Shown: positions 1-19,751 of the stretch, piece by piece
Numbering within the stretch: the first letter of the stretch is position 1
Layout: every line of letters begins with the position of its first letter
Virus record (IMG/VR): IMGVR_UViG_2734482585_000002
DNA: 19,751 nucleotides
DNA from: a virus
Taxonomy: Duplodnaviria; Heunggongvirae; Uroviricota; Caudoviricetes
Strand: one strand, 5' to 3'
Position numbers and translations under genes: made by a program
Notes under the pieces: generated by a model
Told to the model about the DNA's origin: nothing
The model's database searches: none
Seen by the model: only the letters and a program-made list of their open reading frames with translations

Positions 1-3000
1 CCGCTCCCCGGATCGTCATACGCTATACCGTTAAAAATAATGGGCGGAATAATAATCTGGCGGTCAAAGTTATGATCATCGCTGATGGTGACTGTAACCG
101 TACCGTCTGGTGTTTCCGTGTTACCCCACGTACCGACTTTTTTCGGGAAGGCTTTTGATACAGCTTTAACGAAATCCCCTCTGACCTGGGTCGCCTCCAG
201 CATGCCCTTAATCGTACAGTTCTGGTTAATCGTGACATTGTTGAGCGTTCCTGAGTTCGCATTCACACTACCACTGATATCCGCATTTTTAGCGGTCAGC
301 TTTCCGTCTGATGTCAGGGAAAATACCGGAGGACTGCCACCGCTGGTAATGGCGGGGGCTGTCAGGCGCTTCAGGAACACGTCGTTCATGAATATCTGGT
401 TGCCCTGCGCCACAAACATCGGCGTTTCATTCCCGTTTGCCGGGTCAATAAACGCGATACGATTGGCGGCAACCAGAAACTGGCTCAGCTTGCCTTCCTC
501 CGTGTCCTCCATGCTGAGGCCAATACCCGCGACATAATGTTTGCCGTCTTTGGTCTGCTCAATTTTGACGCCCCACATCGCATTCCATTTATCGTTAGCG
601 TCCTTCCACTCTTTCGAAAACTCATCCAGTCTGCTGGCGTTATCCTCCGTCAGATCAACTTTTTCCAGCAGCTCTTTACCGAGATGGGATTCGGTTATCT
701 TGCCTTTGAAAAAATCCAGGTAACCTTCCGCATCATCGCTCGCCCGACCGACGGCCTCCACGAATGCCGATTTGCCAACGGTGTTCACACTGCGGATATA
801 AAAGTAATAATCATGGCCCGGTTTGATATTGATACTGGCGGCTATCCAGTACAGCCCCGCGCCAAGGTAGCGGGCTGTGGTTTCAACCTGCCTGATATCG
901 GTAATCCGCGTTTCCGAGAACCAGAACTCAAACTGTACCGTCGGATCATAAACCGCAAGATGCGGCGTGGCAGTTATCTGAAAATAGCCCGGCGTCAGCT
1001 CAATCCGCGACGGTGCTACCGGTGCGGCAATCCTGAACGATACCGACGCCGGATCGCCCTGCTGTCCCCAGGCATTTACCGCCCGGACTGTCAGCGTGTA
1101 CCGTCCCAGCGCCAGTTGCGTGAAGCGGTATGTGGTTTCCGTCGTCCGGGCCGTGCTGACCAGNNNNNNNNNNNNNNNNNNNNNNNNNNNNNNNNNNNNN
1201 NNNNNNNNNNNNNNNNNNNNNNNNNNNNNNNNNNNNNNNNNNNNNNNNNNNNNNNNNNNNNNNNNNNNNNNNNNNNNNNNNNNNNNNNNNNNNNNNNNNN
1301 NNNNNNNNNNNNNNNNNNNNNNNNNNNNNNNNNNNNNNNNNNNNNNNNNNNNNNNNNNNNNNNNNNNNNNNNNNNNNNNNNNNNNNNNNNNNNNNNNNNN
1401 NNNNNNNNNNNNNNNNNNNNNNNNNNNNNNNNNNNNNNNNNNNGCCGTCAGGAACACGGCTCACTTTCACCTTCACGCCGTCGGTGACGGACTGAACCTC
1501 CACGCTGACCGGATTGCCACTTCCGTCAACCAGGCTTATCAGCATGGTACCGGAGGATGGCAGCGTGATTTCACGGTCGAGCGTCAGCGTCCGGGTCTGG
1601 CTGTTTACCGCCAGCACGCGCCCGCCGATGCTGATACCCGCATAGTCATCATCACAGATTTCAATGACATCGCCCGGCACATGGCGAAGCCCTTCTGCGC
1701 CCACGCTGAAGTCCACGGTCTGCGTTTCCAGCAGTTCTGTTTTAATCAGCCACAGCCCGGCGCGGTGTGCCTGCCCCCGGCTGGTACAGCCAAAAGCATC
1801 CATCTTCGTGACGTTACGACCGTAACGGGCAATGGCCTGCGTATCCTCCACAAGCTCTGTCGCCGTCTCCCAGCCGTTATCCGGGTCAATCCAGTTCACC
1901 TCAACGGCATTATGGCGGTCTTTCAGGGCGCTGAAGCTGTAGCGGAACGGCGCGCCATCATCCGGCATCACCACATTACTGCGGTTATAGGTCCACACCT
2001 TATCCGACGGTCGGTCCTGCACGAACGTCAGCGTCTGCCCGTTCCATACCGGCATACAGCGCATCGCCGAGCAGAAATCACTGAGCACATCCCACGCCTT
2101 GCGCTGTGTGGTCAGGTACGCATTACAGGTGATGCGCGGCTCCGTGCCGCCAAAGCCGTCCGGCACTGACTGGTCGCAGTACTGGCCGATGACATACAGC
2201 GCCCATTTGTCCACATCCGCCGCACCAAGACGTTTCCCCATGCCGTAGCGCGGGTGGGTCAGCATATCCCACAGACACCAGGCCATGTTGTTGCTGTATG
2301 CTGGTTTTAACGTTCCGTCCCAGATACCGCTGTATTGTCGCGTCTGCGGGTTATAGTTCGACGGCACCTGCAGAATGCGCCCGCGAAGATGATAATTACG
2401 ACTCACCTGCTGGCTGCCGAACTGCTCCGAGTCCACCTGTACGCCGACCAGTGCAGTGTTCGGGTAGCACTGTTTCACATCGATGATTTCGGTGTATGAC
2501 GACCAGAGCGTTTTGTTCTGCAGCTGGTCTGTGGTGCTGTCCGGTGTCATCCTGCGCATCCGGATACTGAACGGGCGCGGAGGCAGGTTATCCACCACCA
2601 CCGAGACCAGATACTGCGAGGTGGTTTTGCCCTTAATGGTGATGTCTTTTTCCGTCACCCAGCCACCGTTACGCTGTATCTGAACCAGCAGGCGGACTTC
2701 CGACGGATTCCTGTCTCCCTTTGAGGTGGTTTCCACCAGTGCCTGTACACCGAAGGTAAAGCGCAGACGGTCGATGTTTGCCGACGTGATGGTCCGGGTG
2801 ATCGGCGTGTCATATTTCACTTCCGTACCCAGCACCGTCTCGGAGCCGGAGGATTCAAACCCCTCCGGCGGTGACTGCTCCTGCTCACCTGCCCGGAACA
2901 CCACCGTGACGCCGGAGATGTTGGTATTCCCCTCACTGTCCAGCACCGGCGTACTGTTCAGCAGCACGCTTTTTAATCCATCCACCGGACCTTCAACCGG

Positions 3001-3099
3001 CCCTTCGCTGATGGCATCGATCACACTCAGCAGCTGCGTGGACTTCAGGTTGTCCTTCGCTTCGCGCGGGGTATGCCCCTTACTGCTGCCTTTACCCAT
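1..3099 (-). CDS. J: Tail tip / host specificity protein J, N-terminal ~1030 codons; 3' end lies beyond the window start; interrupted by an N-run
   Basis: ORF 1000..3099 begins [34 protein letters not shown], matching lambda gpJ as I recall it. My manual translation of the minus strand below the gap (1..1163) continues in J-like sequence ([20 protein letters not shown]...) to the window edge. ATG at 3097-3099. Confidence 0.95.
1164..1443. other. Assembly gap (280 N) inside J
   Basis: Run of n characters; J reading frame resumes on both sides. Confidence 0.99.
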
Positions 3100-3159
3100 T
3101 CGTCATGCTCCATAAACGATAAAACCGCCCGGAGGCGATTTCACATAAAACATTTTGCA

Positions 3160-3831
3160 TCAGCGACCAATCACCACAACCTGACCACCGTCCCCTTCGT
3201 CTGCCGTGCTGATCTCCTGAGATACCACACGTGACCCCACGCGCATTTCACCATACAGAACAGGCATAACATTGCCCTGGGCAACCATGTTATCCAGTGA
3301 GGAGAAATAGGTGTTCTGCTTACCGTTATCCGTTGTCTGTGTGCGGGGAGTTCTGGCTTTCGGTGCCAGCATCTGAGCCACACCGCCGAGCACCATACTG
3401 GCACCGAGAGAAAACAGAATGCCGGTCATACCACCGGCACCAATGGCAGCCCCCCATGCTGCAAGGGTGGCTCCGGCGGTAAAGAATGATCCGGCAATGG
3501 CGGCTGCTCCCAGGACAATCTGGAATACACCACCTGACTTGGCCCCGGCGACTCTGGGAACAATATGAATCACAGCGCCGTCAGGCAGAGCCTCATGTAA
3601 CTGTGCCGTTAATCCGGACGTGCTAACATCCTGCCCGGCAATACGCACCTGATACCAGCCGTCGCTCAGCTTCTGACGAAACGCAGGGAGCTGTGTGGCC
3701 ATCGCCCGGATGGCTTCGGCACCCGTTTTCACACGAAGGTCGATGCGGCGGCCAAATCGTTGCAAATCCCCGTAAAGGCAGATGCGTGCCATGCCCGGTG
3801 ACGCCAGAGGGAGTGTGTGCGTCGCTGCCAT
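3160..3831 (-). CDS. I: Tail assembly protein I
   Basis: 223 aa ORF, MAATHTLPLASPGMARICLYGDLQRFGRRIDL..., same length as lambda gpI; overlaps K by 103 nt as in lambda. Confidence 0.95.
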   Translation of the reverse strand: MAATHTLPLASPGMARICLYGDLQRFGRRIDLRVKTGAEAIRAMATQLPAFRQKLSDGWYQVRIAGQDVSTSGLTAQLHEALPDGAVIHIVPRVAGAKSGGVFQIVLGAAAIAGSFFTAGATLAAWGAAIGAGGMTGILFSLGASMVLGGVAQMLAPKARTPRTQTTDNGKQNTYFSSLDNMVAQGNVMPVLYGEMRVGSRVVSQEISTADEGDGGQVVVIGR

Positions 3832-4391
3832 TTGTCGGTATACCTCTCTCGTTTGCTCAGTTGTTCAGGAATATGGTGCAGCAGCTCGCCGTCACCACAG
3901 TAAATGGCGGCATGATTCGGCACCGATGAACCAAAACAGCACAGCAGCACATCGCCCGGCTGCGCCGCTGACAACGGCACCTGATACAGCCCTGTGGCCT
4001 CCAGATTATCCAGATAGAGATTCTGACCGTGACGCCACCAGTCATCCTCACGATGAAAATCCGGCATCTCAATCCCCGCCAGATGGTAAGCATCCCGGAA
4101 CAGCGTGTAACAGTCCGTCACCCCGTGCTCAAAGCGCCGCCCGGTAAGATGTGGCACACAGCGGAACTTGTGAATCGCCCCCCGGCAGACCAGCCACCAC
4201 GGCAAATCACTCTGCACCTGCAGCCGCCGGTCGGCCTCACTCAGCCAGGGCAGACCACCGTCCGGCTCACCGGAGATATTCACGCAGGGGAAATATCTTT
4301 CCCCCTCCGGCGTTCTTACCACGAAGCCGCACGACTCCGCTGGAGCACATCGCCGGGCGTGCGCCAGAATCGCTGATTCTGTCTCTGTCAT
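3729..4391 (-). CDS. K: Tail tip assembly protein K (MPN/JAMM-like N-terminal region plus NlpC/P60-like C-terminal region); 220 aa, about 27 aa shorter than the full-length lambda frame
   Basis: ORF MTETESAILAHARRCAPAESCGFVV...; C-terminal 175 aa collinear with lambda gpK as recalled; starts 5 nt after the L stop; ATG at 4389-4391. Confidence 0.9.
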   Translation of the reverse strand: MTETESAILAHARRCAPAESCGFVVRTPEGERYFPCVNISGEPDGGLPWLSEADRRLQVQSDLPWWLVCRGAIHKFRCVPHLTGRRFEHGVTDCYTLFRDAYHLAGIEMPDFHREDDWWRHGQNLYLDNLEATGLYQVPLSAAQPGDVLLCCFGSSVPNHAAIYCGDGELLHHIPEQLSKRERYTDKWQRRTHSLWRHRAWHASAFTGICNDLAAASTFV

Positions 4392-4396
4392 GGGAT

Positions 4397-5095
4397 TTAC
4401 TGCGAAAGTTTGTTAATGGAAAGGAAGCCGCCAAAGTTGCCGACGTTATTGCGAAACTTACAGCCACTCAGGCATTTGCTGCATTTATCCTTCGTGATGT
4501 CGGACGTTGGCTGGTCATATTCATCCGCGACCGCCGGACCGTGATAACCGCACTCATCGCCGCGATAGGTCCAGGTGCAGGTGTTGGCCAGCATGATACG
4601 TCCCGGAAAAACAGCGCCATCTGTTTCCGTCGGCGTGGACAGTACAAAAGAGGCACTCACCGCGCTCAGTTCGCTGCACTGCTCAATGCGCCAGCGGCTG
4701 ATCACCTCCTGCTCCGGATCGGCGTCACTGTTTCCGTTGACGAAGTTCACCGCATCCAGAAAACGGGCGTAAACCTTACGCCGGACCACCGTTCCGCCGA
4801 CCAGACTCTGTAGATCTTCCGCCATCCCGGTGACCATACCGTACAGGTTAGAAACCATCAGCGTGGGGCGCGTACTGGTGCCTTTGCCATTCAGTTCAAA
4901 ACCACTCCCCTGAATGGGATACGGCTGATACTGTCGCCCCTGCCAGGTGACCGGCTCACCTTTTTCGTTCTGCTCATTACAGAAAAAATAACGTTCTCCA
5001 CCGACCTCTGTCAGATCGATTTCCCAGAGCACCACGCTGGCCGACTGCTCCGCACGGGTGCATTCATTCAGTGTTTCCTGCCGGATATCCTGCAT
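4397..5095 (-). CDS. L: Minor tail protein L
   Basis: 232 aa ORF MQDIRQETLNECTRAEQSASVVLWEIDLTEVGGERYFFC..., lambda gpL length and sequence; C-terminal Cys cluster. Confidence 0.95.
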   Translation of the reverse strand: MQDIRQETLNECTRAEQSASVVLWEIDLTEVGGERYFFCNEQNEKGEPVTWQGRQYQPYPIQGSGFELNGKGTSTRPTLMVSNLYGMVTGMAEDLQSLVGGTVVRRKVYARFLDAVNFVNGNSDADPEQEVISRWRIEQCSELSAVSASFVLSTPTETDGAVFPGRIMLANTCTWTYRGDECGYHGPAVADEYDQPTSDITKDKCSKCLSGCKFRNNVGNFGGFLSINKLSQ

Positions 5096-5424
5096 CAGTT
5101 CACCACCTGTTCAAACTCTGCGCTGAACTCAACACGCAGCATACTGACCCGCGACGACCATTTTGCGCAGGTCACCTTTATCTGCCGCCACTCATAAGGC
5201 GGCGTCCACAGAAAGGCTTTCCAGCCCCCGTGCTCTTCCAGAAACGACTCCAGTACCATGGCCTCCTCACGGGGGACAGAAAGCGTCACGCTGTACGTTT
5301 TCAGGTTGGCATTCAGCCCGGCAGGCGCTCGCTGGGAATAGCCATCACCAAAGCGCACCTTTCTTACAGAAGGGGCCGAAGCCACATCCATACCGGGTTT
5401 CACTTTCCAGCGGAAGGTTTTCAT
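5095..5424 (-). CDS. M: Minor tail protein M
   Basis: 109 aa ORF MKTFRWKVKPGMDVASAPSVRKVRFGDGYSQRAP...; overlaps L start by 1 nt and H start by 4 nt. Confidence 0.95.
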   Translation of the reverse strand: MKTFRWKVKPGMDVASAPSVRKVRFGDGYSQRAPAGLNANLKTYSVTLSVPREEAMVLESFLEEHGGWKAFLWTPPYEWRQIKVTCAKWSSRVSMLRVEFSAEFEQVVN

Positions 5425-7982
5425 CGTCCACCTCCGGAGAACAGGCCACCATCACGCATCTGTGTCTGAATTTCATCACGGGCACCCTTGCGGGCCATGT
5501 CATACACGGCCTTCATCATCTGTGGACCTGGCAGACCATTCGTACCGTCGTTCTGAATCACCACGTGATTGTTCTGATTAAAATTAATGCCTTCAGCCCG
5601 CCGCATCTGCGCCGGACTTCCGGCACCGCCCACATAACCACCTTCCGCATAGCCGCGCATCAGCCGGTAGAGATTCCCCACGCCAATCCGGCTGGTTGCC
5701 TCCTTCGTGAAGACAAATTCACCACGGTGAACAATCCCCGCTGGCTCATATTTGCCGCCGGTTCCCGTAAATCCCCCGGTTGCAAAATGGAATTTCACCG
5801 CAGCGGCCTGAATGGCTGTACCACCTGACGCGGATGCGCCGCCACCAACAGCCCCGCCAATGGCGCTGCCGATACTCCCGACAATCCCCACCATTGCCTG
5901 CTTAAGCAGAATTTCTGTCATCATGGACAGCACGGAGCGGGTGAAGCTGCGCCAGTTCTGTTCACTGCCGGTCAGCATCGCCGCCATATTCTGTGCAATA
6001 CCATCAAAGGTCTGCGTGGCTGCACTTTTAACCTGTGACATACTGTCCGTGGCGCTCTCTTCCCACTCACTCCAGCCGGACTTCAGGCCTGCCATCCAGC
6101 TCCCGCGAAGCTGGTCTTCAGCCGCCCAGGTCTTTTTCTGCTCTGACATGACGTTATTCAGCGCCAGAGGATTATCGCCATACTGTTCCTTCAGGCGCTG
6201 TTCCGTGGCTTCCCGCGCTGCCTGCCGGTCAGTCAGCCCCCGGTTTTTCGCATCAATGGCTGCCCGTTTTGCCCGTTGCTGCTGTGCGAATTTATCCGCC
6301 TGCTGCGCCAGCGCATTCAGGTGCTCCTGATACGTAACCTTGTCACCAAGTGCAGCCAGCTGGCGTTTGTACTCCAGCGTCTCGTCTTTATGCGCCAGCA
6401 GGGATTTCTCCTGTGCGGACAGCTGGCGACGTTGTGCCGCCTCCTCCAGTACCGCGAACTGACTTTCTGCCTTCCACAAATCCCGGCGCTGCTGGCTGAT
6501 TTTCTCATTCGCTCCGGCATGCTTCTCCAGCGTCCGGAGTTCTGCCTGAAGCGTCAGCAGGGCCGCATGAGCACTGTCTTCCTGACGATCGCCCGCATAC
6601 ACCTTCACGCCGGACTGTTTCGGCTTTTTCAGCGTCGCTTCATAATCCTTTTTCGCCGCCGCCATCAGCGTGTTGTAATCTGCCTGCAGGATTTTTCCGT
6701 CTTTCAGTGCCTTGTTCAGTTCTTCCTGACGGGCGGTATATTTCTCCAGCGGCGTCTGCAGCCGTTCGTAAGCCTTCTGCGCCTCTTCGGTATATTTCAG
6801 CCGTGACGCTTCGGTATCGCTCTGCTGCTGCGCATTTTTGTCCTGTTGACGCTGTTGATCTACCCTCTTTTGGGCTGCATCCCGCTCCAGGCGTTTTTTT
6901 TCACGATCATCCCAGTAACGCGCCCGTGCTTCATCGTTAACGAAATAATCATCCTTGCGCAGATTCCAGATGTCGTCTGCTTTCTTAAACGCAGCCTCTG
7001 CCTTAATCAGCATCTCCTGCGCGGTATCAGGACGACCAATATCCAGCACCGCATCCCACATGGATTTGAATGCACGTGCAGTCCTGTCTGCCCAGGTCTC
7101 CAGCGTGCCCATGTTCTCTTTCAGGCGGCGGGTCTGGTCATCAAACCCTTTCGTTGCGGCCTCGTTCGCCGCCTGCAATGCCCCGGCTTCATCGCCGGAA
7201 CGCTGCAACTGAGCAACATACGCAATCTGCTCCGCCGTCACGTTATGGAACTGGCGTGCCATCGCCGTCAGCCCCGACGTCGGGTCTGTGGTCAGCTTCC
7301 CGAAGGCTTCAGCGACCTTGTCCACCTCCACGCCGGATGCATAGGAGAAACGCGCCACACTCTGGCTGATGGACGCAATCTGAGCCTCACCGCTTACCCC
7401 CGCCTTAACCAGTGCGCTGAGTGACTCGCTGGTCTGGTTAAACGTCAGCCCTGCCGCCTGCCCGGCTCTGGACAGGACCAGCATACGATCTGCCGTCAGT
7501 CCCGCCTGATTACCGGAAAGGACCAGCGTTTTGTTGAAATCGGACAGGGTTGAGTTGCCCTGATACCAGGCATACGCCAGCGCACCGGTCGCCACCGCCA
7601 GCGAGGTGGCCCCCACCATCGGCAGGGTGATCGCGCCGGCAAGCCCCCTGAACATGGGGATCATCCCGCCGAAGGAGTCCTTAACCTGACCACCCTGTTG
7701 CAGCAGGATCAGCCAGGGATTCTGCCCCCCTGCAAGCTGCGTGGCCACGTCGGTGAACTGTGCAGGCAGCATACGCATGGCGGCTTTATACTGCCCGACG
7801 GAAATCCCCGCTTTCTGTGCAGCCAGCGCCTGTCGGCTCAGCGACTGTTCAACGACTGCCGCTGTTTTTTTCGCATCACTTTCCGTACCGGAAAAATGAC
7901 GCCTGACTCTGGCCATCTGCTCGTCAAATCTGGCCGCATCCAGACTCAAATCAACGACCAGATCGCCTACCGGTTCAGCCAT
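5421..7982 (-). CDS. H: Tail tape measure protein H
   Basis: 853 aa ORF MAEPVGDLVVDLSLDAARFDEQMARVRRHF..., coiled-coil middle and Gly-rich C-terminus; same length as lambda gpH; GGAGGAG RBS upstream of the ATG at 7980-7982. Confidence 0.96.
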   Translation of the reverse strand: MAEPVGDLVVDLSLDAARFDEQMARVRRHFSGTESDAKKTAAVVEQSLSRQALAAQKAGISVGQYKAAMRMLPAQFTDVATQLAGGQNPWLILLQQGGQVKDSFGGMIPMFRGLAGAITLPMVGATSLAVATGALAYAWYQGNSTLSDFNKTLVLSGNQAGLTADRMLVLSRAGQAAGLTFNQTSESLSALVKAGVSGEAQIASISQSVARFSYASGVEVDKVAEAFGKLTTDPTSGLTAMARQFHNVTAEQIAYVAQLQRSGDEAGALQAANEAATKGFDDQTRRLKENMGTLETWADRTARAFKSMWDAVLDIGRPDTAQEMLIKAEAAFKKADDIWNLRKDDYFVNDEARARYWDDREKKRLERDAAQKRVDQQRQQDKNAQQQSDTEASRLKYTEEAQKAYERLQTPLEKYTARQEELNKALKDGKILQADYNTLMAAAKKDYEATLKKPKQSGVKVYAGDRQEDSAHAALLTLQAELRTLEKHAGANEKISQQRRDLWKAESQFAVLEEAAQRRQLSAQEKSLLAHKDETLEYKRQLAALGDKVTYQEHLNALAQQADKFAQQQRAKRAAIDAKNRGLTDRQAAREATEQRLKEQYGDNPLALNNVMSEQKKTWAAEDQLRGSWMAGLKSGWSEWEESATDSMSQVKSAATQTFDGIAQNMAAMLTGSEQNWRSFTRSVLSMMTEILLKQAMVGIVGSIGSAIGGAVGGGASASGGTAIQAAAVKFHFATGGFTGTGGKYEPAGIVHRGEFVFTKEATSRIGVGNLYRLMRGYAEGGYVGGAGSPAQMRRAEGINFNQNNHVVIQNDGTNGLPGPQMMKAVYDMARKGARDEIQTQMRDGGLFSGGGR

Positions 7983-8813
7983 ACCGGACTCCTCCTGCGA
8001 TCCCTTCTGATACTGTCATCAGCATTACGTCATCCTCCGTCATGTCCGCCACATCCGGGGAAGCGGGGATAACTTCATTCCCGTCCGGGCCAAAGCGGAC
8101 ACCTCCGGCAAGCCCTGCCGCTTTCTGCATCAGCACATCATCTTCAGGCTCTTCGTCAGCCTCGCGCCGGTTCAGCAGACTGAAATCCAGCGGATGCATC
8201 TCCGGATCGCTGAAAAACAGGCTGAGCACGGTGTACGTCAGCCCGGAAAAGTGCATATCCAGCAGAACATCATGAAAATAATGGGTACTGTAAAAGCGGT
8301 GCCAGTCGGCATACTCCGTGGATGACATCCCGGCAAGCATGGCGCGCCAGTCGGGTCGCCCCATCTCACGCGCCAGTTTCAGGGCAAAACTCAGCTCACC
8401 GTCGAACACTTTCCCGCAGAAACAGGCTCTGCAGGCCCGGCGTCCTCTGCCTGTTCAGGAGCATCATTCACCACAAACTCATACATACCGGACAGCCGGT
8501 ACACCACGTTTTCAGCATGAGAAATTGCCTCTGTGGGCCAGGTGGTAAGCACTTCCTGCTCAATCTGTTTAACGGCTTCATTCATGGACGGCATCTGCGT
8601 CTTCTTCGGATGGTTATGCCACAGGGACATCGCAACCACAAAAGCGCCGGTTCTGATGGCGTCTTCCACAGTAAACTTCCGGTTGCTGTCTGACTCCGCC
8701 TGTTCTGCCTGCCGTTTCATCAGGTCGAGATGCTCAATACGCTGCAGGGCTGACAGTTCAGAAAGCGTGACGGTCACACCGTTATGTTCAAATGATTCGG
8801 TTTTCAGGAACAT
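7975..8813 (-). CDS. T: Tail assembly chaperone G-T fusion made by a programmed -1 frameshift at 8409-8415; the T-frame part ends at 7975
   Basis: The -1 frame downstream of the slippery site encodes ...YGVRVGAIGESVTMLMVDDETMDAVDPSA...-like lambda T sequence (ORF 7975..8409); its stop overlaps the H start by 8 nt as in lambda. Confidence 0.88.
8391..8813 (-). CDS. G: Tail assembly chaperone G
   Basis: 140 aa ORF MFLKTESFEHNGVTVTLSELSALQRIEHL... ending ...VSAGKCSTVS. Confidence 0.95.
   Translation of the reverse strand: MFLKTESFEHNGVTVTLSELSALQRIEHLDLMKRQAEQAESDSNRKFTVEDAIRTGAFVVAMSLWHNHPKKTQMPSMNEAVKQIEQEVLTTWPTEAISHAENVVYRLSGMYEFVVNDAPEQAEDAGPAEPVSAGKCSTVS
8409..8415 (-). promoter_or_regulatory. 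Slippery heptamer G_GGA_AAG for the G to G-T -1 ribosomal frameshift
   Basis: Plus strand reads ctttccc (reverse complement GGGAAAG), placed on the Gly-Lys codons of ...SAGKCSTVS near the G stop. Confidence 0.85.
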
Positions 8814-8828
8814 CGCTGACTCTCCGGA

Positions 8829-9569
8829 TTAACTGGCGGTGACGTTGATTTCTGCAACCGCAGCAAACTCACCATTACCAGATACGACCGGAATGTTGAC
8901 CTTGCCTGCAGCAACACCTTTCACGGTGATGGTCATACCACTGACCGACACGGTGGCTTTTGTTTTATCCGCAGACACCGCACGGAAGCTCTTGTCGGTT
9001 GCGCCATCCGGCTGGAATGCCACGGTCAGCGTGGTGCTCTGCCCTTTCACTACGGAAGCACTGGCGGGTGTCACCGTCATGCCGGTCGTCGCCGTCACCG
9101 TGCTGCGATCTTCTGCCATCGACGGACGTCCCACATTGGTGACCTTCACCGTGCGGGTAATCACCTCCTTCGCCGTCACCGCCTTACCGATACTGCTGAC
9201 CCAGCCACGGAACACATCGACCGTGCCGTTCGGGAAGCGGATTTTATAGGCACGGGTATCACCTTCATTAAACCACGCCAGCAGCGCCTGCTGCCCCTGC
9301 TCTCCGGGCATCCACGCCAGCGTGAAGCTGGTATCTCCGGCAGATTTCTGCCCCTGCCCGGTCGCAGTCCAGTCTGCATCTTCATCATCGAGATAGCTGT
9401 CGTCATAGGACTCAGCGGTCAGTTCGCCGGGCGTCAGGTCTTTAACTTTTGCCAGACGCGACCAGTCAACGTCTGAAAGCGGGTTCGCATAAGGGTCACC
9501 GCTCCCCTTATAAACCCACAGGGTGGTCCCGGCACCTTTCACCGGCATTGTAGGATTTGGTACAGGCAT
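8829..9569 (-). CDS. V: Major tail tube protein V with C-terminal Ig-like domain
   Basis: Internal start [36 protein letters not shown]... gives 246 aa, the lambda gpV length; the ORF-track start 30 nt upstream is not used. Confidence 0.94.
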
Positions 9570-9576
9570 AGCGTCC

Positions 9577-9972
9577 TCACATTTCATAGATAATGACATA
9601 AGTCAGATCGGCTGAACTCCACAGGCCCGCATCATCGTCGCGCCGGTAGTCATAGCCGCTGGCCACCATACTGGTGATCAAATCTGACAGTGCCGGGATA
9701 TCGCTCATCACAGGATAAATCCGGGACTCCATCCACGAATCCAGCTCTGAATCCGGCACCTGAGCAGGCAGGAAAACTTCAATATGCAGCTCCGCCTGCC
9801 AGGTATCGCTGTCCAGCTCTTCGCCCGTGTATTCAGCGCCGGTGAGATAAACGGCAATTGCCGGAAAATCTTCCTCATCAAAAACAGCGGGGCGACCATC
9901 AAAAAGCGTCGCCCCGGTGTCATGCTTCTCCAGTGCATCCAGTACGGCTGCACGGAGTTCAGTATGTTTCAT
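9577..9972 (-). CDS. U: Tail terminator protein U
   Basis: 131 aa [40 protein letters not shown]... Confidence 0.95.
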
Positions 9973-10547
9973 CGCTTTATTACCATTCTCAGTTGATGCT
10001 GCAGCGCATAGCCCAGCTCTTTCGGAAGACGTTCACGCCGTATCCGTTCAATATTCTGTTTAAACGCCGTGGTCAGCGGCACCGCCATCGGGATTTTCAC
10101 CACATCAATGGGGTAACGGTTTTTCCCGGCCACACGCTGCATAACATGCCACCGGCCGTTTTTCAGTTGCTGAATAAACGCGCCGGGAATACGACGGTTA
10201 CCCACCACAAGCACGCTGCCGCCACCTTTCAGGGATGAACGCTGCCCCTTTTTATGACGCCTGCGGCGGGACAGGACAACCCGCGCATTACCCAGCTTGA
10301 TTACGGGCAAATCCCCCCGGTTAACTTTGATTCTGGCCTGCGGATTTTTGACCGTGGCCCTTTTCAGCCTGGCCCTTTCCTTTACCAGTTTCCGGCGTAC
10401 CTTTGTCTCACGGGCAACCTGTGACGCAGACTGCGATATCGCGGATGAAGCAACGCGGTTAATGGCCATTGCGGCGGCACCGGGCACCGCCGTTTTGCTG
10501 ATACGGCTGAGGTTTTCAACGGCCTGCTCAAGACCTTTTATGGCCAT
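9969..10547 (-). CDS. Z: Tail completion protein Z
   Basis: 192 aa ORF MAIKGLEQAVENLSRISKTAVPGAAAMAINRVASS...; 4-nt overlap with U. Confidence 0.94.
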   Translation of the reverse strand: MAIKGLEQAVENLSRISKTAVPGAAAMAINRVASSAISQSASQVARETKVRRKLVKERARLKRATVKNPQARIKVNRGDLPVIKLGNARVVLSRRRRHKKGQRSSLKGGGSVLVVGNRRIPGAFIQQLKNGRWHVMQRVAGKNRYPIDVVKIPMAVPLTTAFKQNIERIRRERLPKELGYALQHQLRMVIKR

Positions 10548-10558
10548 ACATCCCCCTT

Positions 10559-10912
10559 TCAGCGGCGACGGTTAACGGCAGGCGGTACGCCCCGTCCAAG
10601 CCAGAGATGACAACTTCCGCCATCATCCGGCGAAACCCGATCTACCCAGAAATTTTCCTCACCGATGGTCAGCGTGTCTCCACGCCGCAGCTGCCGCACC
10701 TCATCAGTCCGGACAAACAGGGACGGGCTGGAGCCTTCAACGCGCACGCCCTGTCCGGCATAGCTGATATTTTCAGGGTCATCAAAAACACCACGTATCA
10801 CCGCACCTGACTGCTCACCGGATGTCATGGTGGCTGACGTTCCCATGTACCCGCGTATCGTTTCATCGGCGCGGGCAATGGCAGCATCGAACAGGTTATC
10901 GAAATCAGCCAC
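10559..10912 (-). CDS. FII: Head-tail joining protein FII
   Basis: 117 aa ORF MADFDNLFDAAIARADETIRGYMGTSATMTSGEQSG... Confidence 0.94.
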   Translation of the reverse strand: MADFDNLFDAAIARADETIRGYMGTSATMTSGEQSGAVIRGVFDDPENISYAGQGVRVEGSSPSLFVRTDEVRQLRRGDTLTIGEENFWVDRVSPDDGGSCHLWLGRGVPPAVNRRR

Positions 10913-10923
10913 AGCGCCTCCCG

Positions 10924-11322
10924 TTATTGCATTCTGGCCAGGCCGCGCTCTGTCATTTCGGCTGCCACACCGGCAGAGACACGAAACGCCGTTCCCGGCA
11001 GCACAAATGCCACAGGTTTATCCCGCGTGGCGTGAAGTGCATCAGTATGCAGCGTCACCAGTGCCACGACCGTGACCAGTTCAGCCGTATCCTGAATCAC
11101 GGTATCCGGCTGCGCTGATACCACCTCATTTTCATGCCCGGTCAGCACATTTTCCCGGCTGAGAGGGGTGTCCTGACCGGCAGTTTCATCCGTGTCATCA
11201 AGCTCTTCTTCCAGCTCTGCCACACGAAGCGCCAGTTCTTCTTTCGTTCCCGTCAAACTGACATCGCGGTTCAATTGCTCACCCAGCTCCTGAAGACGGG
11301 CAATCAGTTCATCTTTCGTCAT
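10924..11322 (-). CDS. FI: Head completion / DNA packaging protein FI
   Basis: Internal start MTKDELIARLQELGEQLNRDVSLTGTKEELALRVAELEEEL... gives 132 aa; GGAGGA RBS before that ATG. Confidence 0.92.
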   Translation of the reverse strand: MTKDELIARLQELGEQLNRDVSLTGTKEELALRVAELEEELDDTDETAGQDTPLSRENVLTGHENEVVSAQPDTVIQDTAELVTVVALVTLHTDALHATRDKPVAFVLPGTAFRVSAGVAAEMTERGLARMQ

Positions 11323-11363
11323 GAACTCCTCCACAGAGAGAAAATGGCCCCGAAGGGCCATGA

Positions 11364-12389
11364 TTACGCCAGTTGAACGGACACGAACTCATCAGGATCA
11401 GCCAGCAGCATCAGCGGTGCTGACTGAATCATGGTGAACTCACGCGCCGGATCGCCGGTGGTCACCCAGTTTTTCGGGTAACGGGCAGAAGCGTTAATGC
11501 CTTCGCGCTGTGCGTCCGCATCCTGAATGCAGCCATAGGTGCGCAGACCGCGAGCCTGAGTGTTCCCCAGCACCATCGTGTTGTCCGGCAGGAAGTTCTT
11601 TTTGACGCCGTTTTCCACGTACTGTCCGGAATACACGACGATGGCCACATCGCCATACATTCCCTTATAGGACACCGCTTTGCCCAGGTCTTTTACCGCT
11701 GTCTCCAGCTCGGAATGAGAGCCGCGACGGGTATCCAGCTTCTCCTTGACGGCTTTGAAGGAACGGAACAGCGCCCAGCCTTTCGGGTCAAACACGATGA
11801 TATTCACCACACCGCTGGCGTTCAGCGCGTAGGCTTCGATATCGTCGGTCGGGTCATACGTGGACTTGTCACGCTTGCTCCACTCCGTGACGCCGGACTG
11901 TGTGATGTTGTTCGCCGCACTGCGGCCCATATCCACCTCAACCGGATCGAAGGCTTCACCGGTCATGGTGTATTTGCCCTTGAGCACGGCAGAAACTGCC
12001 TGCATCTCTTCGACCTGAGCAATGGCCAGCTCTTCGTCACGCATGTTCTGCATGATGATGCGACGGCGGCGGTAAGCCGGGTCCGCCAGATTCTGCGGAT
12101 CTTCATCCGGCAGGCGACGCAGGGTCATCTGCGGATTCACCTCATGCTTGGGTTTGACATATCCCGGCGTAAATTCAGAGGTGGAGCCGCCACGGGAACG
12201 GATAACCTCACCGGAAACAATCGGCGAAACGTACAGCGCCATGTTTACCAGTCCCGGAATTTGTGAGAGATAGACTTTCTCCGTAGTGAAGGGATAGCTC
12301 TCACGGAAAAAGAGACGCAGAAACAGCGGATCAAACTTAAATTTCTGCTCATTTGCCGCCAGCAGCTGGGCGGTTGTGTACATCGACAT
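11364..12389 (-). CDS. E: Major capsid protein E
   Basis: Internal start MSMYTTAQLLAANEQKFKFDPLFLRLFFRESYPFTTEKVYL... gives 341 aa. Confidence 0.96.
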   Translation of the reverse strand: MSMYTTAQLLAANEQKFKFDPLFLRLFFRESYPFTTEKVYLSQIPGLVNMALYVSPIVSGEVIRSRGGSTSEFTPGYVKPKHEVNPQMTLRRLPDEDPQNLADPAYRRRRIIMQNMRDEELAIAQVEEMQAVSAVLKGKYTMTGEAFDPVEVDMGRSAANNITQSGVTEWSKRDKSTYDPTDDIEAYALNASGVVNIIVFDPKGWALFRSFKAVKEKLDTRRGSHSELETAVKDLGKAVSYKGMYGDVAIVVYSGQYVENGVKKNFLPDNTMVLGNTQARGLRTYGCIQDADAQREGINASARYPKNWVTTGDPAREFTMIQSAPLMLLADPDEFVSVQLA

Positions 12390-12444
12390 AAAAAAATCCC
12401 GTAAAAAAAGCCACACAGGCGGCCTTTAGTGATGAAGGGTAAAG

Positions 12445-12777
12445 TTAAACGATGCTGATTGCCGTTCCGGCAAACACGGTCCGTTTTTTCGTCTCGTCGC
12501 TGGCAGCCTCCGGCCAGAGCACATCCTCATAACGGAACGTGCCGGACTTGTAGAACGTCAGTGTGGTGCTGGTCTGGTCAGCAGCAACCGCAAGAATGCC
12601 AACGGCAGCACCGTCGGTGGTGCCATCCCACGCAACCAGCTTACGGGTGGAGGTGTCCAGCATCAGCGGGGTCATTGCAGGCGCTTTCGCACTCAATCCG
12701 CCGGGCGCGGTTGCGGTATGAGCCGGGTCACTATTGCCCAGCGGCTGGTAATGGGTAAAGGTTTCTTTGCTCGTCAT
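12445..12777 (-). CDS. D: Capsid decoration protein D
   Basis: Start [37 protein letters not shown]... gives 110 aa; begins 9 nt after the C stop. Confidence 0.95.
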
Positions 12778-12786
12778 AAACATCCC

Positions 12787-13253
12787 TTACACTGGTGTGT
12801 TCAGCAAATCGTTAACGGCNNNNNNNNNNNNNNNNNNNNNNNNNNNNNNNNNNNNNNNNNNNNNNNNNNNNNNNNNNNNNNNNNNNNNNNNNNNNNNNNN
12901 NNNNNNNNNNNNNNNNNNNNNNNNNNNNNNNNNNNNNNNNNNNNNNNNNNNNNNNNNNNNNNNNNNNNNNNNNNNNNNNNNNNNNNNNNNNNNNNNNNNN
13001 NNNNNNNNNNNNNNNNNNNNNNNNNNNNNNNNNNNNNNNNNNNNNNNNNNNNNNNNNNNNNNNNNNNNNNNNNNNNNNNNNNNNNNNNNNNNNNNNNNNN
13101 NNNNNNNNNNNNNNNNNNNNNNNNNNNNNNNNNNNNNNNNNNNNNNNNNNGCGCCGCGCTGGCGTTCTCGCCCTCCGTCGCTTGCACCACGCCAGTAACG
13201 TCAGCCTGCGAAGCAGTGGCTGAAACAGTTGTTGATTGAGTCTCTTTGGTCAT
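12787..13253 (-). CDS. Nu3: Scaffolding protein Nu3, in-frame internal start within C; middle lost in the N-run
   Basis: ATG at 13251-13253 (MTKETQSTTVSATASQADVT...) preceded by AGGAGGG RBS; shares the C stop. Confidence 0.85.
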
Positions 13254-14157
13254 TCGCCCTCCTGAGAGACGGGATTTACGTGCATCCAGTGCATCACGCA
13301 TGACGGTGATCGCATCGGTACTGTTAACAAGTTCATCAGCCAGTCCGGCATCAATGGCCTCCTGACCGCTGTACACTGCAGCCTCGGTATCCAGCACAGC
13401 CTGCACGGACAGGCCGGTATATGCCGACACCTTCTGTGCAAACATCCGGCGGGTTGCATCCATCCGGGACTGCAATGTTTCCCGGACATCATCCGGTAGA
13501 TGGCTGTAGGGGTTGCCATCCACCTTATGGCTGCCGCTGTAAATCAGCGTGATTTCCACGCCCTGTTTCTCCAGTGCAGCGCCGTAATTACTGTGAGCCA
13601 TCATGACGCCGATGGAGCCTGTCCGGGCGGTCTGCGTGACCAGACGCCGGGAGGCGGCACTGGCAAGCAGCTGACCTGCGCTGCAGTTCATGTCATTGGC
13701 CAGCGCCCATACCGGCTTTATGTCACGCACACGGGCGATGATGTCAGCGCAGTCAAATGCTCCCGCCACCATTCCGCCCGGTGTGTCCATATCGAGCAGA
13801 ATGCCGTCCACCATCGGGTCGCTGGCAGCCTGTTGCAGACGGGCGATAATGCCGTTGTAACCGGTCATCCCCGAGTACGGCTGCAGCGCCCGCGTCCGGC
13901 TGACCAGCGTGCCGGACACCGGCAGCACGGCGATGCCGTTCATTACCTGATAACTGCGGGCCTGTCGTGGTCCGTCATCATCACCGGATAACGCCAGCGC
14001 CGCGGGTGCCTCTCCGGCAGTCAGGCTGTCGCCGGATACTGCATCCGTCAGGCAGCTGATCCCAAGCTGGCCTGCAAGCGCACAAAAGAAAACCCGCGCA
14101 TAGGCGGGTTCAAGCATCAGCGGCTCATTAAAAGCCATGCTGGCAATATGCGGGAGA

Positions 14158-14177
<20 letters not shown>
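12787..14177 (-). CDS. C: Prohead protease/scaffold protein C (ClpP/S49-like), interrupted by an N-run; GTG start
   Basis: VTAELRNLPHIASMAFNEPLMLEPAYARVFFCALAGQLGIS... from GTG at 14175-14177 with GGAGGAG RBS; C-terminus ...AVNDLLNTPV with stop at 12787-12789, read manually below the gap. The ORF-track frame is broken by the arbitrary gap length. Confidence 0.92.
12820..13150. other. Assembly gap (331 N) inside C/Nu3
   Basis: Run of n characters; the length is not frame-preserving, and C spans 1391 nt here against the 1320 nt I recall for lambda, so the gap size looks like an estimate. Confidence 0.99.
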
Positions 14178-17858
<3,681 letters not shown>

Positions 17859-17884
<26 letters not shown>

Positions 17885-18404
17885 TCAGCAACCCCGGTAT
17901 CAGTTCATCCAGCGCGGCTGCTTTGTTCATGGCTTTGATGATATCCCGTTTCAGGAAATCAACATGTCGGTTTTCCAGTTCCGGAAAACGCCGCTGCACC
18001 GACAGGGGGATCCCGTCGAGAATACTGGCAATTTCACCTGCGATCCGCGACAGCACGAAAGTACAGAATGCGGTTTCCACCACTTCAGCGGAGTCTCTGG
18101 CATTTTTCAGCTCCTGTGCGTCGGCCTGCGCACGCGTAAGTCGATGGCGTTCGTACTCAATAGTCCCTGGCTGGAGATCTGTCTCGCTGGCCTGCCGCAG
18201 TTCTTCAACTTCCCGGCGCAGCTTTTCGTTCTCAATTTCAGCATCCCTTTCGGCATACCATCTTATAACGGCGGCAGAGTCATAAAGCACCTCATTACCC
18301 TTGCCACCGCCTCGCAGAACGGGCATTCCCTGTTCCTGCCAGTTCTGAATGGTACGGATACTCGCACCGAAAATGTCAGCCAGCTGCTTTTTGTTGACTT
18401 CCAT
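17859..18404 (-). CDS. Nu1: Terminase small subunit Nu1
   Basis: 181 aa ORF MEVNKKQLADIFGASIRTIQNWQEQGMPVLRGGGKGNEVLYDSAAV...; ATG at 18402-18404. Confidence 0.96.
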
Positions 18405-19494: not shown

Positions 19495-19751
19495 ATCATA
19501 ACGTCCGGTTTCTTCCGTGCCAGAACCGGACTCGCTGGCATGATGAAATATGTGTACCCGGTAACCCCGGTGTGCATCGTTTTTGATTATTCCCGCACAC
19601 TCGCGCAGAAGGAGTTCCCCGTCGGGCTACGGTCTCTGTTAATACGGGAATACGGCGACGATTGGATTTGCCCCTATATTTCCAGACATCTGTTATCACT
19701 TAACCCATTACAAGCCCGCTGCCGCAGATATTCCCGTGGCGAGCGATAACC

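Follow-up and report, generated by a model that had tools for sequence, protein, structure and literature searches.

A rare in-frame deletion removing the JAMM core of tail assembly protein K from a lambda-like prophage of Shigella sonnei

Does a tail assembly gene that has lost part of a predicted peptidase domain represent a natural variant with an inactive domain, or a lesion in a degrading prophage? The question is raised by a 19,751-nucleotide stretch of caudoviricete DNA (IMG/VR record IMGVR_UViG_2734482585_000002; hereafter, the window), which is the Shigella sonnei draft contig CWZX01000081.1 and in which gene K (TAPK, tail tip assembly protein K) encodes only 220 aa. Tail assembly needs K, and virions are without it (PMC10721106, PMC12617516). 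At its full length of 247 aa, K combines two peptidases, an N-terminal JAB/MPN+ zinc metallopeptidase with the motif E19 ... H68-x-H70-x7-S78-x2-D81 and a C-terminal NlpC/P60 cysteine peptidase; its JAB peptidase has been predicted to cleave TAPI, that is, gpI with its ubiquitin-like N-domain (PMC1779556). A literature search for experimental work on the JAB/MPN domain of gpK found none, only predictions and structural papers without visible gpK.

The window K (3729..4391, minus strand; translation containing CVNISGEPDGGLPWLSEADRR) was aligned, as DNA and as protein, with K of phage 434, phage Ayreon and two independently sequenced lambda genomes (PV340536.1 and LC730321.1). The alignments resolve a single clean gap, exactly 81 bp (27 codons) long, outside which the window K is 96-99% identical to the 434, Ayreon and lambda genes. 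The missing 81 bp are present in every full-length relative compared, and the best 30 phage matches all cover 744 bp, split in two pieces, against the 663 bp of the window gene. Alignments and codon map place the junction at 4260..4261 (minus strand; K nucleotides 131/132), inside the interval 4255-4270 where a preliminary description had located a loss of about 27 codons from a 220-aa K. At the junction a new codon 44, GAC (4260-4262), takes its GA from the former Glu44 codon and its C from the end of the former Pro71 codon. One Asp, which is included in the count of 220 residues, thereby stands in place of residues E44-P71 of full-length K; the reading frame is preserved, and H68-S-H70 of the JAMM motif lie within the lost stretch. 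We take the start of K to be the ATG at 4391 rather than an internal Met because the stop codon of L precedes it by 5 nt, a spacing also annotated in phage 434 and in lambda PV340536.1.

The expectation that lambda K should measure about 247 aa is borne out by independently sequenced lambda. The lambda reference (J02459/NC_001416) has no continuous open frame between the stops of L and K, one base being missing after position 14266, and for this reason K is annotated there as a protein of 199 aa starting at Met49. Independent lambda genomes and derivatives have the extra base and a 247-aa K with HSHPGGLPWLSEAD; two other records agree with the reference, one an UNVERIFIED engineered strain and the other a cloacal-swab 'isolate' with reference coordinates. 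The annotated 199-aa protein, considered as an argument that the N-terminal portion of JAB is dispensable, was rejected on this account. Full-length lambda K does carry the HxH, which disposes of the refutation that had been allowed for, namely that lambda K might lack it as well. The RefSeq and UniProt entries for gpK, at 199 aa, omit the first third of the JAB domain, and structural and HHpred analyses of a '199-residue gpK' inherit the truncated model (e.g. PMC7291167). As an observation in its own right, the missing base in the reference K may be of wider use than the deletion allele.

What the deletion leaves of the two peptidase domains was delimited from the lambda K alignment, a structure model of full-length K and the codon map. 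Two remnants of the JAB/MPN domain flank the junction on the minus strand: an N-terminal part (4263..4391, aa 1-43) with helix alpha1 and strands beta1-beta2, and a C-terminal part (4143..4259, aa 45-83, equivalent to lambda residues 72-110) with helix alpha3 and strands beta4-beta5. The JAMM glutamate E19 is kept in its PAESCG context (4335-4337), as is the S-x2-D half-motif, Ser51 (4239-4241) and Asp54 (4230-4232) corresponding to S78 and D81 of lambda K; the His-x-His zinc ligands are absent. The preliminary description was thus correct that both zinc-binding histidines are gone while the Ser-x2-Asp half is retained. The Prok-JAB profile (PF14464) gave the window K 20.3 bits, under the 25-bit cut-off and as a partial match (aa 4-39, profile positions 4-40 of 114), versus 52.3 bits over profile positions 3-112 in full-length lambda K. 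The NlpC/P60 (C40) papain-like peptidase domain (3801..4142, minus strand, aa 84-197) is intact, again as first described: it matches NLPC_P60 (PF00877) at 49.5 bits against a cut-off of 23 (E = 4.5e-13) over all 105 profile positions, and it retains D93-C94, H160 and H172/H173 (Cys94 at 4110-4112, His160 at 3912-3914, His172 at 3876-3878). Precomputed Pfam assignments agree, giving NLPC_P60 alone for the deletion allele and Prok-JAB plus NLPC_P60 for its intact counterpart, and the window K accordingly departs from the two-domain architecture of TAPK orthologues.

In the model of full-length K (pLDDT 97.3), the deletion takes out the loop at 44-50, the helix at 51-60 and the strand at 62-69. 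Helix alpha2 and the central strand beta3 fall, as modelled, within the deleted residues 44-71, and the complete MPN fold would thus be lacking; by this model the lesion goes beyond a dead active site, since core secondary structure of the MPN domain is removed. With two of its three zinc ligands, helix alpha2 and core strand beta3 all deleted, the JAB domain of this allele likely cannot bind zinc and has likely lost its activity, and it probably cannot fold. An AlphaFold model of the shortened protein (pLDDT 96, dipping to 82 at the junction) was discarded as evidence on folding in either direction: AlphaFold is driven by the alignment, and the confidence of this model therefore says little about stability.

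Conservation among homologues bears directly on the consequences of such a loss. In 84 full-length K homologues spanning 31-91% identity, H68, H70 and D81 are invariant, E19 and S78 are at least 90% conserved, and the Cys/His/His columns of NlpC/P60 are likewise invariant or at least 90% conserved; H68 is found in 104 of 108 K representatives of 215-290 aa. Invariance of the zinc ligands down to 31% identity implies selection on catalysis, and in so diverse a set of homologues it makes loss of function likely in the deletion allele.

The distribution of the allele was read from exact matches in an index of some 15 billion proteins. The 220-aa protein occurs there on four contigs only, all from S. 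sonnei (CSK90250.1, CSL58525.1, CSM94900.1 and CSM99362.1). Three of the four contigs were compared and are identical over window positions 3100-14462 save for two SNPs in L005. The window K with the 81 bp restored is an exact match to an intact allele, P0284, which is named 'MULTISPECIES: C40 family peptidase [Shigella]', occurs on at least 1000 contigs (5044 index blocks) and is carried by complete S. sonnei genomes such as CP104423.1 and CP032523.1. Apart from the gap, the window differs from CP104423.1 by one mismatch in 8559 bp (about 99.99% identity). Because the intact parent is known, the deletion can be dated as very recent. A 40-mer spanning the junction had no match among complete E. 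coli genomes (5,426) or phage records (50,697), nor a 32-mer in the genome_contigs and viral_contigs sets; these negatives speak of rarity, in collections that contain few Shigella genomes.

The surroundings of K are those of a lambda-like prophage. The tail-gene order H-M-L-K-I-J is intact and agrees with annotations of phage 434, lambda and E. coli prophages. Gene L (4397..5095, minus strand, from the ORF list) lies directly upstream of K; gene I (tail assembly protein I; 3160..3831, minus strand) overlaps the 3' end of K and is intact, with 98% identity to lambda I over 223 aa, a Pfam Lambda_tail_I match of 95 bits and an N-terminal ubiquitin-like domain; gpI is the protein on which the JAB peptidase of K is predicted to act (PMC1779556). 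Since every other late gene in the window is a full-length ORF, the prophage cannot be called grossly decayed. Homology to E. coli relatives ends at 19662, and the terminal 89 bp (19663..19751) match IS2 ends in E. coli genomes at 100%, the contig ending within an IS2 whose insertion site has the lysis/KilA-N region on one side and the DUF1398 gene/Nu1 on the other. The complete S. sonnei genomes CP104423.1 and CP041322.1 show the identical junction and there contain the entire IS2 of 1331 bp. The DUF1398 protein was dropped as a context marker, being too widespread among prophages, and the terminase was used instead. In complete S. sonnei genomes the late region of this prophage carries, besides the IS2, an IS1 upstream of the holin gene and another after tfa; Q-modified transcription might pass through these IS elements.

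These observations lead us to conclude, with high though not complete confidence, that the deletion is a recent and rare in-frame lesion of 81 bp in a lambda-like prophage of S. sonnei. The allele is an ordinary lesion in a decaying prophage and not a new kind of protein. Of the two alternatives offered in the preliminary description, the degrading-prophage lesion is the one upheld, by its rarity, its intact parent and the IS insertions, and the natural inactive-MPN variant is disfavoured: four contigs stand against about 5,000 blocks of the intact allele, the flanks are near-identical, and IS1 and IS2 were already present. On this account the deletion would have arisen by a single illegitimate event in a prophage whose late region already carried IS1 and IS2 and on which selection was probably weak or absent, and a small clone would then have inherited it. 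The JAB-dependent step would presumably fail, namely, by prediction, the cutting of the ubiquitin-like N-domain off gpI and possibly also gpH cleavage. The NlpC/P60 domain, the frame and the overlapping gene I are unaffected. Such a K would be expected not to support tail assembly unless K from another prophage acts in trans.

The alternative that best withstands these data is that the JAB/MPN domain is dispensable or serves as scaffolding, the shortened K still supporting tail assembly. The intact frame, NlpC/P60 domain, K-I overlap and neighbouring late genes are consistent with it, although an in-frame deletion, expected also of a tolerated variant, has a one-in-three chance of arising anyway. 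The function of gpK is experimentally unassigned in the literature (PMC10721106, PMC12617516), and Iyer, Burroughs and Aravind (2006) described phages and prophages with a K homologue having NlpC/P60 only (PMC1779556); the same authors, however, suggested that the JAB-less versions are possibly degenerate variants typical of integrated prophages (PMC1779556). Dispensability is further opposed by the invariance of the JAMM zinc ligands in distant homologues, by the confinement of the junction to four contigs of one clone against thousands with the intact allele and its absence from every isolated phage genome searched, and by the loss of core secondary structure beyond side chains. We consider this alternative unlikely, and we think it similarly improbable, if anything slightly more so, that Delta44-71 is a natural separation-of-function mutant still supporting tail assembly. 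Were Delta44-71 nevertheless functional, the JAB zinc site of gpK would be dispensable and NlpC/P60 or scaffolding would be the essential activity, overturning the 2006 prediction that JAB processes the ubiquitin-like gpI.

A second alternative, that the 81 bp were collapsed when short reads from a genome containing several lambdoid prophages were assembled or scaffolded, is in our judgement very unlikely. The window does come from a draft scaffold, with two N gaps that depart from the lengths in relatives (280 versus 342 bp and 331 versus 260 bp) and a J region that differs patchily from the complete genome, suggesting paralogous copies; moreover, all four scaffolds are drafts with similar CW-prefixed accessions, perhaps from one project and pipeline. 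Against collapse, the identical junction appears in three separately assembled isolates, and no repeat at its breakpoints could have misled an assembler of the de Bruijn or overlap type. The gap, moreover, is clean and preserves the frame, and the sequence on both sides (8.5 kb on one, gene I with the remainder of K on the other) is a near-perfect match to the complete genome.

How the deletion arose is partly indicated by its ends. A search for a flanking direct repeat of at least 6 nt found none, nor was there microhomology at the junction; slipped-strand deletion between repeats is ruled out for the 81-bp allele by this lack of flanking repeats, and the event therefore looks like a one-off illegitimate deletion. 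The left breakpoint falls within the 3' arm of a small palindrome, CTCCGG-TGAG-CCGGAG, and small palindromes, one at each breakpoint, are a possible contributor. Other E. coli prophage K genes show sporadic in-frame deletions that are similarly rare (1-6 contigs per allele), in a set chosen by short length and near-complete query coverage and hence biased toward in-frame events. Among them, a 29-aa deletion that removes the JAMM core recurs in P0052, P0058, P0061, P0068 and P0070, 28-aa deletions remove it in P0072 and P0077, and P0064, P0074, P0083, P0087, P0094 and P0098 have in-frame deletions in the NlpC/P60 half. The recurrence of the 29-aa (87-bp) loss is explained by a 9-bp direct repeat, GGCTGCAGG, at both of its ends (K nucleotides 161 and 248). 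That loss of the JAMM core was favoured because the host gains from disabled tail assembly or from an NlpC/P60-only activity is the least credible explanation, for although several such core deletions arose independently in E. coli prophages, the recurrent one has a mechanical cause in its repeat, comparable deletions strike the other domain too, all the alleles are rare, and their mode of selection favoured in-frame events.

Taken alone, the lesion we favour matters little: it adds one step of decay to a cryptic prophage in a clonal pathogen, and public databases already list the 220-aa protein under a generic name. The allele is nevertheless convenient for separating the functions of the two domains. 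Together with its intact parent, from which it differs by 81 bp only, it provides a ready isogenic pair for testing the need for JAB, with a bearing on the role of gpK, on gpH cleavage (PMC12617516) and on removal of the ubiquitin-like domain of gpI.

The allele can be compared with several known systems. Lambda gpK (247 aa; PV340536.1, LC730321.1) is its orthologue, with 96% identity outside the gap and the same L-K-I-J position, N-terminal start, NlpC/P60 domain and overlap with gene I; relative to it, the window K is without residues 44-71, has Asp at the junction and falls below the Prok-JAB threshold. The intact S. sonnei allele P0284 is identical at all residues outside the deleted segment and accompanies the same IS2 insertion, but carries the 81 bp encoding EAYFRMSPEDWLQAEMQGEIVALVHSHP. 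The JAMM-core deletion alleles of E. coli prophages are likewise rare in-frame losses of 28-29 aa; their breakpoints are different, however, and the recurrent 29-aa loss is flanked by repeats, unlike that in the window. The JAB-less TAPK forms (PMC1779556) are also K homologues that stand beside TAPI without a functional JAB, whereas in the window the JAB domain is gutted internally, leaving a remnant of about 80 residues flanking the gap. The N-domain of full-length K has the JAMM/MPN+ fold with the complete E...HxHx7Sx2D motif (PMC300881), and its model matches the Pyrococcus furiosus enzyme JAMM1 (PfJAMM1; with SAMP2, 5LD9/5LDA), Rpn11, CSN5 and AMSH. From these relatives the window K differs in being without the HxH strand. 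MPN- paralogues such as Rpn8 are naturally inactive yet fully folded. Because its core strand and helix are missing, the window K resembles neither the MPN+ enzymes nor MPN- Rpn8.

The window is occupied by the late region (head and tail genes) of a lambda-like prophage in reverse orientation: Nu1 (17859-18404, minus strand) comes first in the late gene order and is followed, all on the minus strand, by A, W, B, C, D, E, FI, FII, Z, U, V, G/T, H, M, L, K, I and the 5' part of J. The late ORFs have the lengths seen in lambda or in annotated E. coli relatives, and those other than K are full length in the window. Two runs of N mark scaffold gaps, one in J (1164-1443, 280 nt; 342 bp in the homologous stretch of relatives) and one in C/Nu3 (12820-13150, 331 nt; 260 bp in relatives), the former artificially breaking the J frame into a listed 699-residue "ORF" with X residues. 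J itself (1-3007, gaps excluded) shows patchy divergence of about 2-9% from the complete Shigella sonnei genome and a sister isolate, whereas the window from 3100 onward is near-identical to both. These patches suggest recombination with, or mis-assembly from, the paralogous J of a second lambdoid prophage in the same genome, which, if real, might also provide a second copy of K in trans. Long plus-strand ORFs running opposite J, K and L (for example 4151-4813) look like side effects of GC-rich coding DNA on the other strand rather than genes; a 150-residue ORF antisense to J (85-537, plus strand) is called as a gene, without a Pfam match, in some public assemblies.

K (3729-4391, minus strand) is a 663-bp ORF starting 5 nt past the L stop codon, and it encodes the 220-residue protein, reading ...CVNISGEPDGGLPWLSEADRR..., of the preliminary description. 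Its 30 best phage matches all cover 744 bp and are all split in two pieces; alignments with phage 434, phage Ayreon and two independently sequenced lambda genomes contain one clean 81-bp (27-codon) gap, with 96-99% identity outside it, which bears out exactly the loss of about 27 codons including the HxH of the JAMM motif given in the preliminary description. The deletion junction lies at 4261|4260 and creates a new codon 44, GAC (Asp), from the GA of the former Glu44 codon and the final base of the former Pro71 codon; residues 44-71 of the 247-residue protein are gone, H68-S-H70 among them. JAMM residues E19, S78 and D81 are still present, the latter two as S51 and D54, so that the Ser-x2-Asp half is kept as first described, and the NlpC/P60 half, also described as intact, retains D-C94, H160 and H172/H173 and matches the whole NLPC_P60 profile (Pfam) at 49.5 bits. 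The proposed HMM search for the JAB domain gave Prok-JAB 20.3 bits, under the Pfam cut-off of 25 bits and covering only residues 4-39; full-length lambda K scores 52.3 bits with Prok-JAB and 49.2 bits with NLPC_P60.

The comparison with lambda exposed a discrepancy in the reference record. In J02459/NC_001416 the distance from L stop to K stop is 743 nt and the frame is not continuously open: it shifts past codon 45, and K is annotated as 199 residues from Met49. Alignment reveals one base absent after 14266 (GGAGGC^TATTTCC versus GGAGGCGTATTTCC); this site, 14266|14267 (approximately 866-867 in our NC_001416.1 segment), and Met49, the classical annotated start, both fall within the stretch lost at window 4260|4261. 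Gap-free matches to the reference come from only four lambda-type records, namely J02459 and its RefSeq copy, an engineered strain flagged UNVERIFIED, and an "isolate" from a swab that has the reference coordinates. The extra base and a 247-residue K with the full JAMM motif occur in DE3, lambda of K-12 CV601, lambda imm21, imm434, h434, PV340536.1, LC730321.1 (48,503 bp) and lambdoid relatives; KT232076.1 likewise has the base. The lambda frame of about 247 residues given in the preliminary description therefore holds for the real phage, the reference record aside, and the full motif in that protein disposes of the possibility that lambda K also lacks HxH. The missing base, probably a 1982 sequencing error, splits the 247-residue frame and so yields the RefSeq 199-residue K, which lacks the first third of the JAB domain and with it E19. 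That this annotation is cut down by a one-base discrepancy is worth remembering; the "199-residue gpK" of published analyses carries it over.

Searching 1.84 billion cluster representatives retrieved 2,787 relatives of K. Among the 108 matches listed (215-290 residues), H68 is present in 104, H70 in 102, D81 in 104 and E19 in 101, and chimeric fragments account for most of the exceptions. H68, H70 and D81 do not vary across a curated alignment of 84 homologues of full length (31-91% identity), in which E19, S69, S78, C121, H187 and H200 each reach at least 90% conservation. An AlphaFold model of a full-length allele built from this alignment (pLDDT 97.3, pTM 0.92) places in the MPN domain helix 3-15, strands 21-27 and 30-36, helix 51-60, strand 62-69, helix 79-88 and strands 92-96 and 99-103. 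Mapped onto it, the deletion removes loop 44-50, helix alpha2 and beta3, the central strand with both histidines, so that the fold is damaged and two of three zinc ligands are lost as well. The shortened protein was also modelled with confidence (pLDDT 96, falling to 82 where the two parts join), but since the alignment drives this model it was not counted as evidence of folding.

Exact-protein look-up located the identical 220-residue K in four S. sonnei contigs in all, including that of the window, CWZX01000081.1 (GCA_001258155.1). The contigs from other isolates that were read equal the window across 3100-14462, save two SNPs (3840 and 3855) in one of them, L005, and their remaining differences all lie within J. 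The junction sequence was found in none of 5,426 complete E. coli genomes or 50,697 phage records, nor in the species-representative genome set or IMG/VR. When an intact parent was sought by exact look-up of ten plausible rebuilt K variants with the missing segment restored, eight were found in databases. One of these, P0284, the intact allele of the same prophage (insert EAYFRMSPEDWLQAEMQGEIVALVHSHP; annotated "MULTISPECIES: C40 family peptidase [Shigella]"), occurs in at least 1000 contigs and in 5044 index blocks, complete genomes included. Compared with complete genome CP104423.1, the window has a single mismatch over 4261-12819 (8,559 bp) and matches throughout 13151-14462, and the 81-bp gap is the sole difference in K. 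This near-perfect match, together with the common intact allele, marks the deletion as derived and very recent, in a prophage that is otherwise common in S. sonnei.

Versions of K without JAB were already pointed out in prophages in 2006 (PMC1779556). A reading of Delta44-71 as a functional JAB-less variant is disfavoured, the lost residues being invariant in homologues, the core structure lost, and the allele confined to one small clone and lacking from the isolated phages searched. Collapse during assembly is an unlikely source of the gap: the junction is common to three separately assembled isolates, there is no repeat able to mislead an assembler, and agreement with the complete genome is almost perfect both over the 8.5 kb on one side and over the remainder of K and gene I beyond the junction.

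No direct repeats of 6 nt or more flank the 81 bp and no microhomology exists at the junction; the left breakpoint falls inside the 3' arm of the palindrome CTCCGG-TGAG-CCGGAG and the right within CCACC-CC-GGTGG (direct reading). The deletion looks like a one-off illegitimate event. Other E. coli prophage K proteins (P0052, P0058, P0061, P0068 and P0070) have a common 29-residue in-frame deletion (residues 55-83), found in more than one E. coli background, which takes out the entire HxH...S..D motif. A 9-bp direct repeat, GGCTGCAGG, occurs at K nt 161 and again at 248 (in both L010:10001-10744, from the complete genome, and L008:655-1398), and the 87 bp of this deletion lie exactly between its copies, a slipped-strand hotspot that accounts for the recurrence. 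Further rare in-frame deletions affect the JAB half (P0072, P0077) or the NlpC/P60 half (P0064, P0074, P0083, P0087, P0094, P0098); sporadic internal loss is thus normal for K in prophage decay, and the window allele is one more instance. Selected domestication of K is not supported, as the recurrent deletion is mechanically caused, both domains are struck and every such allele is rare.

The window ends in 89 bp of IS2 terminus (19663-19751), and homology to E. coli relatives ends at 19662. Complete S. sonnei genomes have the same junction with a full 1331-bp IS2 (L018, approximately 6892-8222), between lysis/KilA-N genes on one side and a DUF1398 gene and Nu1 on the other, as well as one IS1 that separates the Q/porin region from the holin gene and a second IS1 after tfa. 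The late operon is therefore already interrupted across S. sonnei, and its tail genes are presumably under relaxed selection, though Q-antiterminated transcription might still pass through the insertions. With an intact parent common in S. sonnei and both IS2 and IS1 in the late region, the option of a lesion in a degrading prophage, one of two offered in the preliminary description, prevails: Delta44-71 is most probably an unremarkable lesion of recent date, with likely loss of function, in a gene already known from a prophage that insertion sequences have interrupted.

Lambda tail assembly needs gpK, which neither mass spectrometry nor cryo-EM detected in virions (PMC10721106, PMC12617516), and the canonical JAMM motif is present in lambda K (PMC300881). 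Iyer, Burroughs and Aravind predicted that the K JAB domain cuts the ubiquitin-like N-domain off gpI at a conserved C-terminal glycine (PMC1779556). Only residues ~134-223 of virion gpI were seen in two cryo-EM studies, which is consistent with such cleavage without being proof of it. In the window gpI is intact (98% identity to lambda I; Lambda_tail_I 95 bits), including its ubiquitin-like N-domain (3541-3792, residues 14-97, ending ...VPRVAGAKSGG), and the lesion, being in frame, disturbs neither the K-I overlap nor translation of I. The prophage would accordingly retain the predicted substrate with the JAB peptidase destroyed, and Delta44-71 K would not support tip assembly unless the K of another prophage acts in trans. 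Delta44-71 and P0284 form a natural isogenic pair for probing the role of the gpK JAB domain. By sequence, the only relative of K in the PDB is the JAB protein 2KKS; by structure (Foldseek), the N-domain resembles Pyrococcus JAMM1, which has also been solved with the ubiquitin-like SAMP2, as well as Rpn11, CSN5 and AMSH, and the C-domain resembles NlpC/P60 enzymes of the MepS/Spr type.
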